54,527 nt of DNA from a virus. Taxonomy: Duplodnaviria > Caudoviricetes. Made by a program: the position numbers and the translations under genes. Positions within the stretch are counted from its first letter, which is position 1. Each line of letters begins with the position of its first letter. The DNA is taken from positions 1-54,527 of IMG/VR virus record IMGVR_UViG_3300024496_000043, one strand, 5' to 3'. Below are positions 43,044 to 44,528 of the stretch, in pieces. The notes below the pieces were generated by a model. It did not search any database. It had not been told where the DNA came from and saw nothing but the letters and a program-made list of their open reading frames with translations.

Positions 43044-44528
43044 TTAAAGTTTACTTTGTCCGCCGCTACAACTTGGACAATACCAACTATTGCACCAGTG
43101 GCCGCAATAGTTCCATGGACACCAGCAAGAGTTGTGCATAACGCTAAAATCACCGTCACCTATATCAACTAAGAATAAATCGGACGGTTCAAAATCTAAA
43201 GTATAAATTGTCTTTTGAGCGTGTTCCATTTCCAGGCTAGCAATCTCTACTTTAGTTAGTTGATTGGTATTTGAATCTGTTATAACTAACTTGTCACCAA
43301 CATACATTTTATTAACTCTTTCGAATTTGGTTGCTGTTGAATCTTTTTCTTCAATATAGTACACACAAGATGGTGCATCTATCCAGCTTCTGCCATCAAC
43401 TAATGTTATTCTAATATATATGGTGTCAACTAAAGATGATACTTTGTTTTGAAGTGTTGTACCTGTTTGAATTAGTGTTTCATTATCCCTTACCAAATTA
43501 CTATCCCATCCAAAAACTTCAACCTTACCCTCTTCAAATTTGGCTGCATGGTTATCGTTAAAATCAACATAGTCGATTGATCTCATGAAATCACCCAATT
43601 GAATGGTATCCACATCAGCCAATGTTCCGTCATATTTTAATATTTGACTATCGTCATCTGTATGATAATCATTTATGGTTGACTCGCCAATTTCTTTGGT
43701 AATATATTTAAATCTACTTTTTTGGTTTAATCTATTAGTACCGGCTACATATTCATCGGCATAGAAAGATAATGGTAAAATCGTAGATTGTGTATATCCC
43801 CCCATGTTTATAATATCTAAATTAGGCCCGTATATAATATCGATACTTCTAATAATTGAATATCTACCTTCAACTAGGTTATCCTCTGAGAATATAAACT
43901 CTTGAGCTAAACAATCTGACTCTACTGATGACTTTAACGTGCTTAATTCATTTGAATCGCTAACTTTATGAATAGCTGGATATGTTAAAACGTTATATTG
44001 TGGAGATTTTGATTTTATTAAAACGTTAGGTGCGGTGCTACTAAAATCAACATCATCCAAAGTATCAAGGCTCAATTGAGGTGAGTTAAAATAGGTTTTT
44101 GGCGAATAGGTTGACCCGCTCATTAGTGAGAAAAACTCAAATTTATCTGCACAATATGTTTCATCAACCAGGGCAGTGGTATCAAAAGACTGCCTTAATA
44201 TAAACTTATTTGGGGCGTCTTCAATGTAAGGAACAGTAACAGAATTCATGGGAACAACATATTCATTAAAAGTAATATTGTTTTCCAAGCATTTTTCCTG
44301 TAGTATTTTTTTAAATTTAAATGGTTCCATCATTGGCTTATAGGAATCGCCCTGTGTCCAAATAAAGTGGAATTCTGTTATGTTGTTAGCATTTAAAACA
44401 CTAAAAAGTGGATCGTAGTCCAACAATTCAGCACCTGCATTATAAATTGTGGTGTTTGTATTTATTTCTAAAAACTTAACCGTATCATCTTTCTGTAGTA
44501 AATCACTACCAATTATTGTTGCTTTCAT
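43044..44528 (-). CDS. Permuted ATP-grasp-like domain + Hint domain + Cys/Trp-rich C-terminal peptide
   Basis: GSD..KFLEINTN at N-terminus, ADK, VLIK, AQEFI; Hint blocks QILKYDG..IQLGD, VGDKL, IYTLDF, MHN/S. Confidence 0.7.
   Translation of the reverse strand: MKATIIGSDLLQKDDTVKFLEINTNTTIYNAGAELLDYDPLFSVLNANNITEFHFIWTQGDSYKPMMEPFKFKKILQEKCLENNITFNEYVVPMNSVTVPYIEDAPNKFILRQSFDTTALVDETYCADKFEFFSLMSGSTYSPKTYFNSPQLSLDTLDDVDFSSTAPNVLIKSKSPQYNVLTYPAIHKVSDSNELSTLKSSVESDCLAQEFIFSEDNLVEGRYSIIRSIDIIYGPNLDIINMGGYTQSTILPLSFYADEYVAGTNRLNQKSRFKYITKEIGESTINDYHTDDDSQILKYDGTLADVDTIQLGDFMRSIDYVDFNDNHAAKFEEGKVEVFGWDSNLVRDNETLIQTGTTLQNKVSSLVDTIYIRITLVDGRSWIDAPSCVYYIEEKDSTATKFERVNKMYVGDKLVITDSNTNQLTKVEIASLEMEHAQKTIYTLDFEPSDLFLVDIGDGDFSVMHNSCWCPWNYCGHWCNSWYCPSCSGGQSKL
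43131..43664 (-). other. Hint (intein-like) domain, ~aa 289-466
   Basis: Block A pattern without Cys1, block B TxxH replaced by APSC, intact His-Asn followed by Ser. Confidence 0.65.

Follow-up and report, generated by a model that had tools for sequence, protein, structure and literature searches.

The 54,527 bp IMG/VR contig IMGVR_UViG_3300024496_000043 (referred to throughout as the window; G+C content ∼31%, estimated completeness 16%) encodes on its minus strand a 494-residue protein, hereafter the target, in which an ATP-grasp-like ligase domain is followed by a Hint domain without an N-terminal nucleophile and by a short Cys-rich tail. The best explanation that we can offer for it, with a probability of roughly 0.45 for the reading as a whole, is that of a self-processing enzyme–peptide fusion of uncultured T4-like jumbo phages, and the system has the look of a so far undescribed route to a small modified peptide. 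A preliminary description had proposed, from the DNA letters and their translation, that the protein autoproteolytically frees its tail, which the fused ligase might then cyclize or attach to a target. The open reading frame (ORF) is as described there, with every listed motif present, and the interpretation as a whole is partly supported by the results below.

Family and domain structure of the target protein

The target is clearly a genuine gene of a large, purely viral family. A word-indexed search returned 558 close proteins at E ≤ 0.001, the best 120 of which are mostly 491–501 residues long, 63–82% identical to the target (the window's own copies excluded) and located on contigs of up to 324 kb. 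Among 50%-identity cluster representatives, an exhaustive HMMER search found 271 relatives at E ≤ 0.001 and 72 at E ≤ 1e-30. Relatives are encoded in 151 IMG/VR stretches and are abundant in ocean and lake viral contigs; look-alikes in the Atlas are clusters labelled 96–100% viral. The Atlas also returned an ATP-grasp (TTL/YheCD) cluster at 0.75, which we regard as a lead only. The full records of two relatives (one of 316 kb and 95% complete, the other of 288.7 kb with terminal repeats and 100% complete) each include a capsid gene of the T4 Gp23 type that passes the Pfam cut-off, from which we take the family carriers to be T4-like jumbo phages. No relative of the target, or of P0155 (whose relatives occupy loci L084–L102), was found by tblastn among 50,697 GenBank phage records; the 40–48 kb region of the window gave no megablast match and one neighboring oxygenase no tblastn match at 1e-8. 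The target itself matched no Pfam family at E ≤ 10, had no meaningful match in PHROGs and matched no NCBIfam model above threshold. Longer fused forms (866–2470 residues) were not found at E ≤ 0.001, which is weak evidence given the search tool.

Conservation was assessed in an alignment (A2) of 124 rows, consisting of the window protein, 20 of the 120 close proteins spanning the identity range and 103 of the 150 listed representatives, the other 47 (short fragments or partial matches) being left out. Identity to the window protein drops to ∼21% in this alignment, in which E21, N23, R112 and D122 are invariant, D9, K172 and R227 are conserved at 99%, H465 at 95% and N466 at 99%. Because these key residues persist down to such low identity, the motif set is far beyond chance. 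The full-length AlphaFold2 model has a pLDDT (predicted local distance difference test) of 89.2 and a pTM (predicted template-modeling score) of 0.83.

Profile and fold both identify residues ∼289–466 as a Hint domain. The family profile matches the KlbA intein in the PDB (2jmz; E = 1.3e-8, profile positions 288–447 against chain residues 13–170), and also the PolII and VMA inteins, a ciliate bacterial intein-like (BIL) domain and hedgehog. Foldseek with the full-length model gave 52 PDB matches at E ≤ 0.001, every listed one of which is an intein, a hedgehog Hint domain or a BIL domain, with a target-normalized TM score for the Hint domain of up to 0.76. In the KlbA profile alignment intein residue 1 aligns to H289, a mapping that depends partly on what we take to be the start of the KlbA intein. 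Over the 124 rows, the position-1 column holds 51 His, 18 Lys, 13 Gly and eight each of Ile, Ser and Leu, and no Cys. The block-B His column, occupied by C388 in the target, holds 47 Ser, 20 Thr, 17 Cys and 15 Ala, and no His, and the F-block His column (position 450, Asp in the target) holds 86 Asp and 23 His. The missing block A nucleophile, with a His in its place, and the missing block-B His to which the preliminary description had pointed are therefore borne out by the alignment.

The C-terminal dyad is intact, as had also been proposed: His-Asn is present in 118 of the 124 relatives and the Asn in 123. The only Hint residues conserved at ≥80% are G312, G411, F452, H465 and N466, which makes H465 and N466 the sole strongly conserved polar residues of the domain. 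The following residue varies (27 Ala, 16 Ser, 14 Pro, nine Val, eight Tyr and others). A Ser after the Asn, which had been noted, is thus present in the window protein as S467 and is not a family feature; the family does not keep the Cys, Ser or Thr that inteins have at +1, and the Ser here is a chance of the clade. Since the target has neither a Cys, Ser or Thr at position 1 nor a block-B Thr-x-x-His, splicing and N-terminal cleavage are excluded and the last step alone is possible. Judged from these residues, the Hint domain is unable to start splicing and yet retains what Asn cyclization uses. According to the available excerpts of the review PMC4031507, Asn cyclization is aided by the His residues of the penultimate and F-block positions, and C-terminal cleavage can take place without the earlier steps. 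Class 2 (KlbA-like) splicing through a Cys at +1 was considered and rejected: a Cys at this position is confined to proteins in which a second Hint domain comes immediately next, and there is no block-B His. The Hint-family Pfam matches in ten relatives (PT-HINT, Intein_splicing, Vint and related models) all fall in extra C-terminal Hint modules, and PT-HINT gives no match to the middle Hint domain itself in the window protein or in these ten.

Residues 1–285 are ATP-grasp-like in their modeled structure and are not filed in the GSP_synth (PF03738) or CP_ATPgrasp_2 (PF14403) families, the profiles of which gave no match to the window at E ≤ 10. Modeled separately from 141 rows, the domain reaches a pLDDT of 95.6 and a pTM of 0.90. 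Foldseek against the PDB returned 14 matches at E ≤ 0.001, all of the glutathione/glutathionylspermidine-synthetase type: Escherichia coli glutathionylspermidine synthetase (several entries, best 1.2e-5), yeast glutathione synthetase, soybean homoglutathione synthetase and the structural-genomics proteins 3n6x and 3k1t, which are annotated as glutathionylspermidine or γ-glutamylcysteine synthetase-like (325–376 columns aligned, E from 1.2e-5 to 5.4e-4). ATP-grasp proteins of canonical order rank far lower (RimK-domain protein 5i47, E = 0.19; VanA, 3se7, E = 0.25 over 137 columns). Positions 134–169 of the 188 in the RimK ATP-grasp profile match residues ∼1–28 (14.2 bits, below the cut-off of 21; E = 7.7e-4 for a search against the window alone, that is, one genome), and weak RimK matches occur in two of 25 relatives (best 0.064). 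The protein therefore starts with the part that normally ends the ATP-grasp fold, which fits a circular permutation, and the residues follow in this order, with the presumed Mg-site hairpin of D9, E21 and N23 (D9...E21-I-N23-T-N) first and then K172 (in VLIK), Q209-E-F and R227. Eukaryotic glutathione synthetase is a circular permutation of the ATP-grasp fold. The residues conserved at 90–100% in A2 are D9, E21, N23, T24, D104, R112, D116, D122, Y125, P167, N168, K172, P184 and R227, with D9, E21, N23 and K172 at 99–100%; by analogy with ATP-grasp motifs, D9, E21 and N23 are putative metal ligands and K172 is the putative phosphate-binding Lys. Both folds that had been assigned from motifs, ATP-grasp and Hint, are thus recovered by structure prediction and Foldseek, and the Hint fold by profile as well; the permuted order has the support of the RimK match.

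Table 1. Features of the target gene and its surroundings (positions in the window)
Feature	Positions	Strand	Basis and remarks
Target ORF: ligase-like domain, Hint domain and Cys-rich tail	43044..44528	minus	494 residues plus stop; ORF list, translation
ATP-grasp-type ligase-like domain, residues 1–285, permuted order	43674..44528	minus	Model, Foldseek, RimK profile, conservation
Hint domain without N-terminal nucleophile or block-B His, residues ∼289–466	43131..43664	minus	Profile, Foldseek, column counts
Codons of H465 and N466 (CAC AAC), predicted cleavage dyad	43131..43136	minus	Read directly; the scissile bond would be N466|S467
28-residue tail, residues 467–494	43047..43130	minus	Sequence read; six Cys, four Trp, K-L end
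46-residue ORF, starting 23 nt after the target stop	42880..43020	minus	Read directly, not in the ORF list; ends ...N-A-I-K-x-K-H-x-x
Z95, 95-residue Cys protein	44612..44899	minus	Alignment A5; invariant C32, C35, C51, C54, C56 and C70; ends K-S-I-I
Upstream block: 275-residue protein, two 2OG-Fe(II) oxygenases, tryptophan-halogenase-family enzyme	44896..48154	minus	Pfam, C-terminal ends
Downstream block: DUF6071 protein, 2OG-Fe(II) oxygenase, 217-residue protein, radical-SAM-like protein	39794..42875	minus	Pfam, NCBIfam, C-terminal ends
2OG, 2-oxoglutarate; SAM, S-adenosylmethionine.

The polymorphic C-terminal cassette

The ending of the target is the Cys/Trp peptide that had been reported (Table 1). 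The expectation of a variable Cys-rich tail after a conserved His-Asn holds across the wider family, where the tail is hypervariable and unrecognizably different between clades; it does not hold within the window clade, where the tail frame is fixed as C-x-C-x4-C-G-x2-C-x4-C-x2-C and usually ends in Lys and one or two further residues. Rough dN/dS values for this clade, with dS saturated, are ∼0.41 for the tail loops, 0.14 for the ligase domain and 0.17 for the Hint domain (NG86 method; 57 distinct genes, 300 random pairs). With added modules removed, 104 of the 108 Cys-bearing tails have an even number of Cys residues, mostly six or eight, and the four with an odd number are not of the Cys-rich types. 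The tails contain 14.5% Cys and are also rich in Gly, Ser, Tyr, Pro and Asn; a Lys is found within the last four residues of 63 of the 92 pure Cys tails.

A regular-expression split of the 124 rows gives 97 with a tail only, 16 with a true Hint domain after the tail or the His-Asn and 11 with a module resembling Peptidase_S74 (S74-like). In a finer split, the dyad is followed by a Cys tail only in 85 rows, an S74-like module in 11, a Hint domain directly in ten, a Cys tail and then a Hint domain in six, almost nothing (3–7 residues) in six and something else in six. The added Hint modules are well matched by Pfam (PT-HINT 9.8e-13 and 7.9e-15, Intein_splicing down to 2.7e-19, Vint 1.4e-12). Matches of the S74-like module to Peptidase_S74 are weak (P0103, E = 0.0072, 17 bits, below the cut-off of 22; two of 25 members, best E = 0.011; one Atlas cluster with the family in 13% of its members), and P0155 gave nothing at E ≤ 1 in a phmmer search of the PDB. 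The assignment leans mainly on the S-D-x-x-x-K start found in all 11 rows, which we take to be the Ser-Lys cleavage dyad of endosialidase-type chaperones.

Mapped on a tree of the core (FastTree, 470 columns), the six module labels require at least 19 changes, where the minimum is five; the S74-like label alone requires at least six and the Cys-plus-Hint label five. Hint and S74-like modules have thus been gained and lost repeatedly in the family. Three sister pairs (P0103/P0120, P0124/P0125 and P0130/P0132) differ only by an added self-removing module, and P0120 terminates in ...G-G-K at the exact point at which the S74-like module (S-D-x-x-x-K) of its sister P0103 starts. Because sisters differ by the module only, the self-removing modules look like interchangeable ways of defining one mature C-terminus.

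Proposed mechanism, alternative explanations and known systems

With the dyad conserved as described, self-cleavage is plausible, and we lean slightly towards it: Asn466 would cyclize, cut the bond to S467 and free the 28-residue tail, or at least its α-amine. There is about an even chance that the tail then folds, under oxidizing conditions, as a disulfide-bonded mini-protein and forms the variable `business end' of the system. A more doubtful proposal is that the tail is acted on, before its release and while still attached, by the oxygenases, the halogenase and the other enzymes encoded around the target that bear a common C-terminal tag (see below), in the manner of RiPPs (peptides that are made by ribosomes and modified after translation). 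The locus encodes a variable tail after a conserved 466-residue part, and the co-encoded oxygenases, halogenase and radical-SAM-like gene would be the candidate tailoring enzymes. As to the ligase domain, glutathionylspermidine and glutathione synthetases activate a terminal carboxylate of a peptide and join it to an amine. By a similar step, which is improbable on what we have, the domain might use ATP to activate a carboxylate and couple it to an amine within the same system, most simply in a head-to-tail cyclization of the tail. If the cleavage is real, this would be a natural case of a Hint domain stripped down to single-turnover release at its C-terminus and built into one chain with an ATP-dependent ligase, neither of which we found in the full-text literature searched; viruses would join the makers of disulfide-rich modified peptides, and there would be a concrete candidate substrate for the dioxygenase/halogenase arrays of marine T4-like phages that are described in the available excerpts of PMC2938197.

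Several observations weigh against this reading. The block-B His is missing throughout the family and the F-block Asp is not conserved (column 443 holds 25 Ser, 23 Thr and 18 Glu). In the available excerpts of PMC4031507, mutation of these residues (block-B His and F-block Asp) in the Ala1-type KlbA intein drastically reduces both C- and N-terminal cleavage, and in some inteins the C-terminal cut occurs only after the earlier steps. Six of the 124 members lack the penultimate His and 14 have the Pro directly after the Asn; in the six that have 3–7 residues after the dyad, cleavage would free nothing useful. The ligase domain scores above threshold for none of the Pfam or NCBIfam models searched, and its query-normalized TM score in Foldseek reaches just 0.37–0.42. 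It is equally conserved in relatives with a true Hint domain after the tail, which could itself activate the tail C-terminus, so that cyclization by the ligase is not required there. The tail is modeled without confidence (pLDDT below 50 for residues 470–494), and by eye the target has no signal peptide, so that disulfide formation would have to await lysis or take place outside the cytoplasm. The Trp content of the tail did not clearly track the presence of the halogenase gene: window-clade tails have 2–4 Trp residues, with a halogenase wherever the flanks reach it, and of the distant loci, L092, L094 and L097 (4–5 Trp) have no halogenase homolog within a downstream flank of 7.5–10 kb, while L100 and L101 (two Trp) have one, the counts at these loci including the S74-like extension. 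Finally, linkage among related phage genomes may reflect shared ancestry and not shared function.

Of the alternatives, the one that survives best, although we hold it to be unlikely, is that the tail is never cut. The target would then be a one-piece ATP-grasp enzyme acting on another substrate, with the Hint domain as a spacer, the His-Asn kept for folding and the Cys-rich end as a metal-binding or disulfide-stabilized recognition or regulatory module. It would account for the loss of most Hint catalytic positions and for the ligase residues being the best conserved part of the protein; the members with almost nothing after the dyad (6 of 124) and the strictly conserved, folded-module-like tail frame of the window clade also speak for it, as does the dependence of C-terminal cleavage in some inteins on earlier steps or on block-B and F-block residues (PMC4031507, available excerpts). 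However, it leaves unexplained why strong conservation among the polar residues of the Hint domain should be limited to H465 and N466, why Asp alternates with the canonical His at position 450 and why the exchange of unrelated cassettes and self-removing modules takes place exactly after the Asn.

Clearly less probable is an accessory of a virion fiber or adhesin, in which host-range selection would act on the variable Cys-rich end as a receptor-binding tip, the S74-like and Hint modules would be assembly aids removed on maturation, and the neighboring enzymes would modify the giant fiber next door and not this tail. Intramolecular chaperone modules of the S74 type are typical of phage fibers and spikes, and S74-like ends occur in 11 of the 124 relatives, with weak Pfam backing. 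A variable C-terminus fits host-range evolution, a repeat-rich, fiber-like ORF of 2561 residues lies ∼3 kb downstream, and Iyer et al. (2010; PMC2938197, available excerpts) proposed that dioxygenase and sulfotransferase operons modify tail-collar or collagen-like proteins. However, one would not expect a structural tip protein to have a conserved ligase domain that depends on ATP; in the complete genome the target (50.8 kb) is distant from the capsid gene (141 kb), a fiber homolog is found within the flanks at just 13 of 80 loci, and neither Pfam nor PHROGs gave a structural-protein match to the target.

Least probable is an effector akin to polymorphic toxins, in which the Hint domain would free a variable toxic or signaling peptide against the host, competing phages or neighboring cells and the ligase domain would serve its delivery or activation: a conserved N-terminal part, a HINT autopeptidase and a polymorphic cassette are the stated hallmark of such toxins in the available excerpts of PMC3482391, PT-HINT matches the extra Hint modules of relatives (9.8e-13, 7.9e-15) and cassette turnover on the core tree is high, but the target has no secretion or trafficking domain, PT-HINT gives no match to its middle Hint domain, the cassettes are Cys-rich peptides of 25–90 residues and not enzymatic toxin domains, and Z95 and the 46-residue ORF are conserved across clades with unrelated tails (as seen without a systematic co-variation test) instead of co-varying with the cassette as immunity genes would.

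In the full-text literature searched, outside the coverage of which lie most subscription journals and supplements, we found no description of a ligase–Hint–cassette architecture. The earlier statement that no such system is described stands to this extent, beside close logical relatives (PMC3482391 and PMC7878506, as far as their available excerpts go). The layout of the self-processing fusion is a variation on the known theme of Hint-released polymorphic C-terminal cassettes, and there is a fair chance that the gene block as a whole is categorically new. Zhang et al. (2012; PMC3482391), in the excerpts available, place a HINT autopeptidase just before the polymorphic C-terminal cassettes of toxins and predict autoproteolytic release. 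The target shares with these toxins a conserved N-terminal part, a Hint domain and a polymorphic C-terminal cassette, with cassettes exchanged between close relatives. It differs in that its N-terminal part is an ATP-grasp-like enzyme and not a secretion or filament module, its family is purely viral, its Hint domain lacks the N-terminal nucleophile and keeps only the C-terminal His-Asn, its cassettes are short peptides with an even number of Cys residues, and no co-varying immunity gene was seen at its loci, an observation with no systematic co-variation test behind it. The Hint fold and the terminal His-Asn are common to the target, inteins and BIL domains; unlike these, the target has no Cys, Ser or Thr at position 1 and no block-B Thr-x-x-His. 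A-type BIL domains need no nucleophile after the Asn, and the target is like them in this respect. The best structural matches of the ligase domain (325–376 columns) are glutathionylspermidine and eukaryotic glutathione synthetases, from which it differs in having no GSP_synth or CP_ATPgrasp_2 profile match, in its much smaller size (285 residues) and in its fusion to a Hint domain. In borosin precursors, as presented in the available excerpts of PMC7878506, the modifying enzyme and its presumed substrate peptide are one chain, with the core peptide at the C-terminus. The target likewise combines an enzyme domain and a candidate C-terminal peptide in one polypeptide; the borosin enzyme is a methyltransferase, whereas the target has a ligase-like domain, for which action on the tail is a candidate role, and a Hint domain as the predicted release device. 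Release of the borosin peptide needs a separate protease.

Gene neighborhood and shared C-terminal tag

The enzymes on both sides of the target (Table 1) were identified by Pfam and NCBIfam matches. In the upstream block, two ORFs match 2OG-FeII_Oxy_3 (4.1e-11 and 2.8e-4) and one Trp_halogenase (3.1e-91); in the downstream block there are matches to DUF6071 (1.9e-7), 2OG-FeII_Oxy_3 (1.8e-6), Radical_SAM (0.005, below cut-off) and the NCBIfam model N_Twi_rSAM (5.9e-13, below cut-off). Over 80 close loci, many of which are cut by contig ends, the 275-residue protein is found in 74, Z95 in 71, the three 2OG-Fe(II) oxygenases in 62, 67 and 63, the halogenase in 57, the DUF6071 protein in 52, the 217-residue protein in 46 and the radical-SAM-like gene in 21. 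In their available excerpts, Iyer et al. (2010; PMC2938197) call the tandem dioxygenase and tryptophan-halogenase arrays of cyanophages `remarkable' and predict that they modify molecules derived from amino acids or peptides, with no substrate named there. The present array is similar in being a cluster of several unrelated 2OG-Fe(II) oxygenases with a halogenase, again in a marine phage of the T4-like kind; it differs in that it surrounds a candidate ribosomal substrate gene and in that its members share a C-terminal tag. No homolog of the target was found in Pelagibacter phage HTVC008M in the tblastn search of GenBank phage records.

Z95, with the Cys pattern C-x2-C...C-x2-C-x-C...C, matches phrog_13558 (function unknown). 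Of 105 loci, which include clades only 25–30% identical in the target, 86 were called as having Z95 next to the target: in 69 loci of the window clade it lies upstream, in 16 distant loci downstream and in one upstream. The pair has thus been kept through rearrangement, as the two genes are adjacent on opposite sides in different clades, and across clades Z95 is better conserved (40–76%) than the target (25–30%). A predicted complex of the target with Z95 scored 0.01 against a mark of 0.32, which is no answer and counts as evidence neither way. The 46-residue ORF is preceded by a TATAAAT-like element. It was found by tblastn in 82 of the 105 loci, comprising all window-clade loci except one incomplete locus, and in seven of nine distant loci inspected an ORF of 49–50 residues with a similar end (...A-[ILV]-K-x-K-H) directly follows the target; of the other two, one has a shorter ORF and in one the gap inspected lay upstream of the target. 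The ORF has no family match and no usable Atlas hit. At loci L084–L102, Z95 is followed by a conserved 427-residue protein without a homolog in the window, which has an end of the K-K-L-I type and a weak match to PhiKZ_gp91 (0.0016, below cut-off).

Most enzymes around the target (39794–54414, minus strand) end in K-x-[S/T/K]-[I/L]-[I/L], for example K-S-I-I, K-S-L-I or K-K-L-I. An end of the form [STN][ILMVF][ILMVF] is found on ten of the 69 window ORFs, nine of which lie at 39.8–53.6 kb, where three more ORFs end in K-L-I or Y-I-I. The motif is encoded by different Ser (TCG, AGT, TCT, AGC, TCA) and Ile (ATC, ATT, ATA) codons, which indicates selection at the protein level. A DNA-level artifact of overlapping starts or promoters was rejected on the grounds of these varied codons and of Z95, which is tagged although the next gene starts 84 nt away. 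When counted by family over the window-clade loci, with a slightly wider pattern that also accepts Lys or Tyr, the tag is present in every copy of the three oxygenases (102 of 102, 70 of 70 and 69 of 69), the 275-residue protein (83 of 83) and Z95 (73 of 73), in 57 of 67 copies of the 217-residue protein, 20 of 24 of the radical-SAM-like protein, 35 of 54 of the DUF6071 protein and 27 of 59 of the halogenase. It occurs in only one of 83 copies of the target and in none of the APS-kinase-like, nucleotidyltransferase-like, 71-residue membrane, glycosyltransferase and fiber genes (APS, adenosine 5′-phosphosulfate). The tag is distributed similarly in distant clades. In the complete 288,673 bp genome a loose form of the motif ends 17 of 356 ORFs, 12 of which lie at 31.6–54.4 kb, with the target at 50.8 kb. 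The seven oxygenase and halogenase genes checked in phage HTVC008M, which holds the best halogenase match (40%), do not have it.

One idea is that the tag docks on the target protein, and a new principle of docking or targeting may lie behind it. Taken jointly, these elements could be read as a phage-borne, scaffolded peptide factory, a reading that we consider unlikely in its entirety, with the 466-residue ligase–Hint part as leader. About ten tailoring enzymes would dock on this part through the shared K-x-S/T-[IL]-[IL] tag and would hydroxylate, halogenate or otherwise decorate the tethered Cys-rich tail; the Hint domain would then cut by Asn cyclization, and the ATP-grasp domain would seal or attach the tail, for example by head-to-tail cyclization or by ligation to tagged C-termini. 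Such a factory would yield a virus-made peptide that is polymorphic, rich in cystine and heavily modified.

Untagged companions of the block lie at 48118–49101 on the minus strand and comprise an APS-kinase-like gene (apsK, 7.5e-21, below cut-off), a nucleotidyltransferase-like gene of 121 residues with a weak H-x-G-H motif of the NMNAT (nicotinamide mononucleotide adenylyltransferase) type and the gene of the 71-residue membrane protein. The APS-kinase-like group may supply activated sulfate to the 275- and 217-residue proteins, which have no family match and which we suspect, from a P-loop-like motif only, to be sulfotransferases. Directly downstream of the tagged block, the 2561-residue ORF (32045–39730, minus strand), probably a giant fiber, consists of Ser/Thr/Asn-rich repeats of ∼20 residues (S-S-L-N-S-Y-T-S-S-N-x-x-R-L type). 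Three tandem paralogs of ∼370 residues (28642–32027, minus strand; phrog_1417, function unknown) all end in T-S-S-G-H-C-G-W-R-x. The sole plus-strand block of the window (14289–21922), which is marked by a change in the sign of the GC skew, contains two glycosyltransferase-like genes and one nucleotide-sugar epimerase-like gene.

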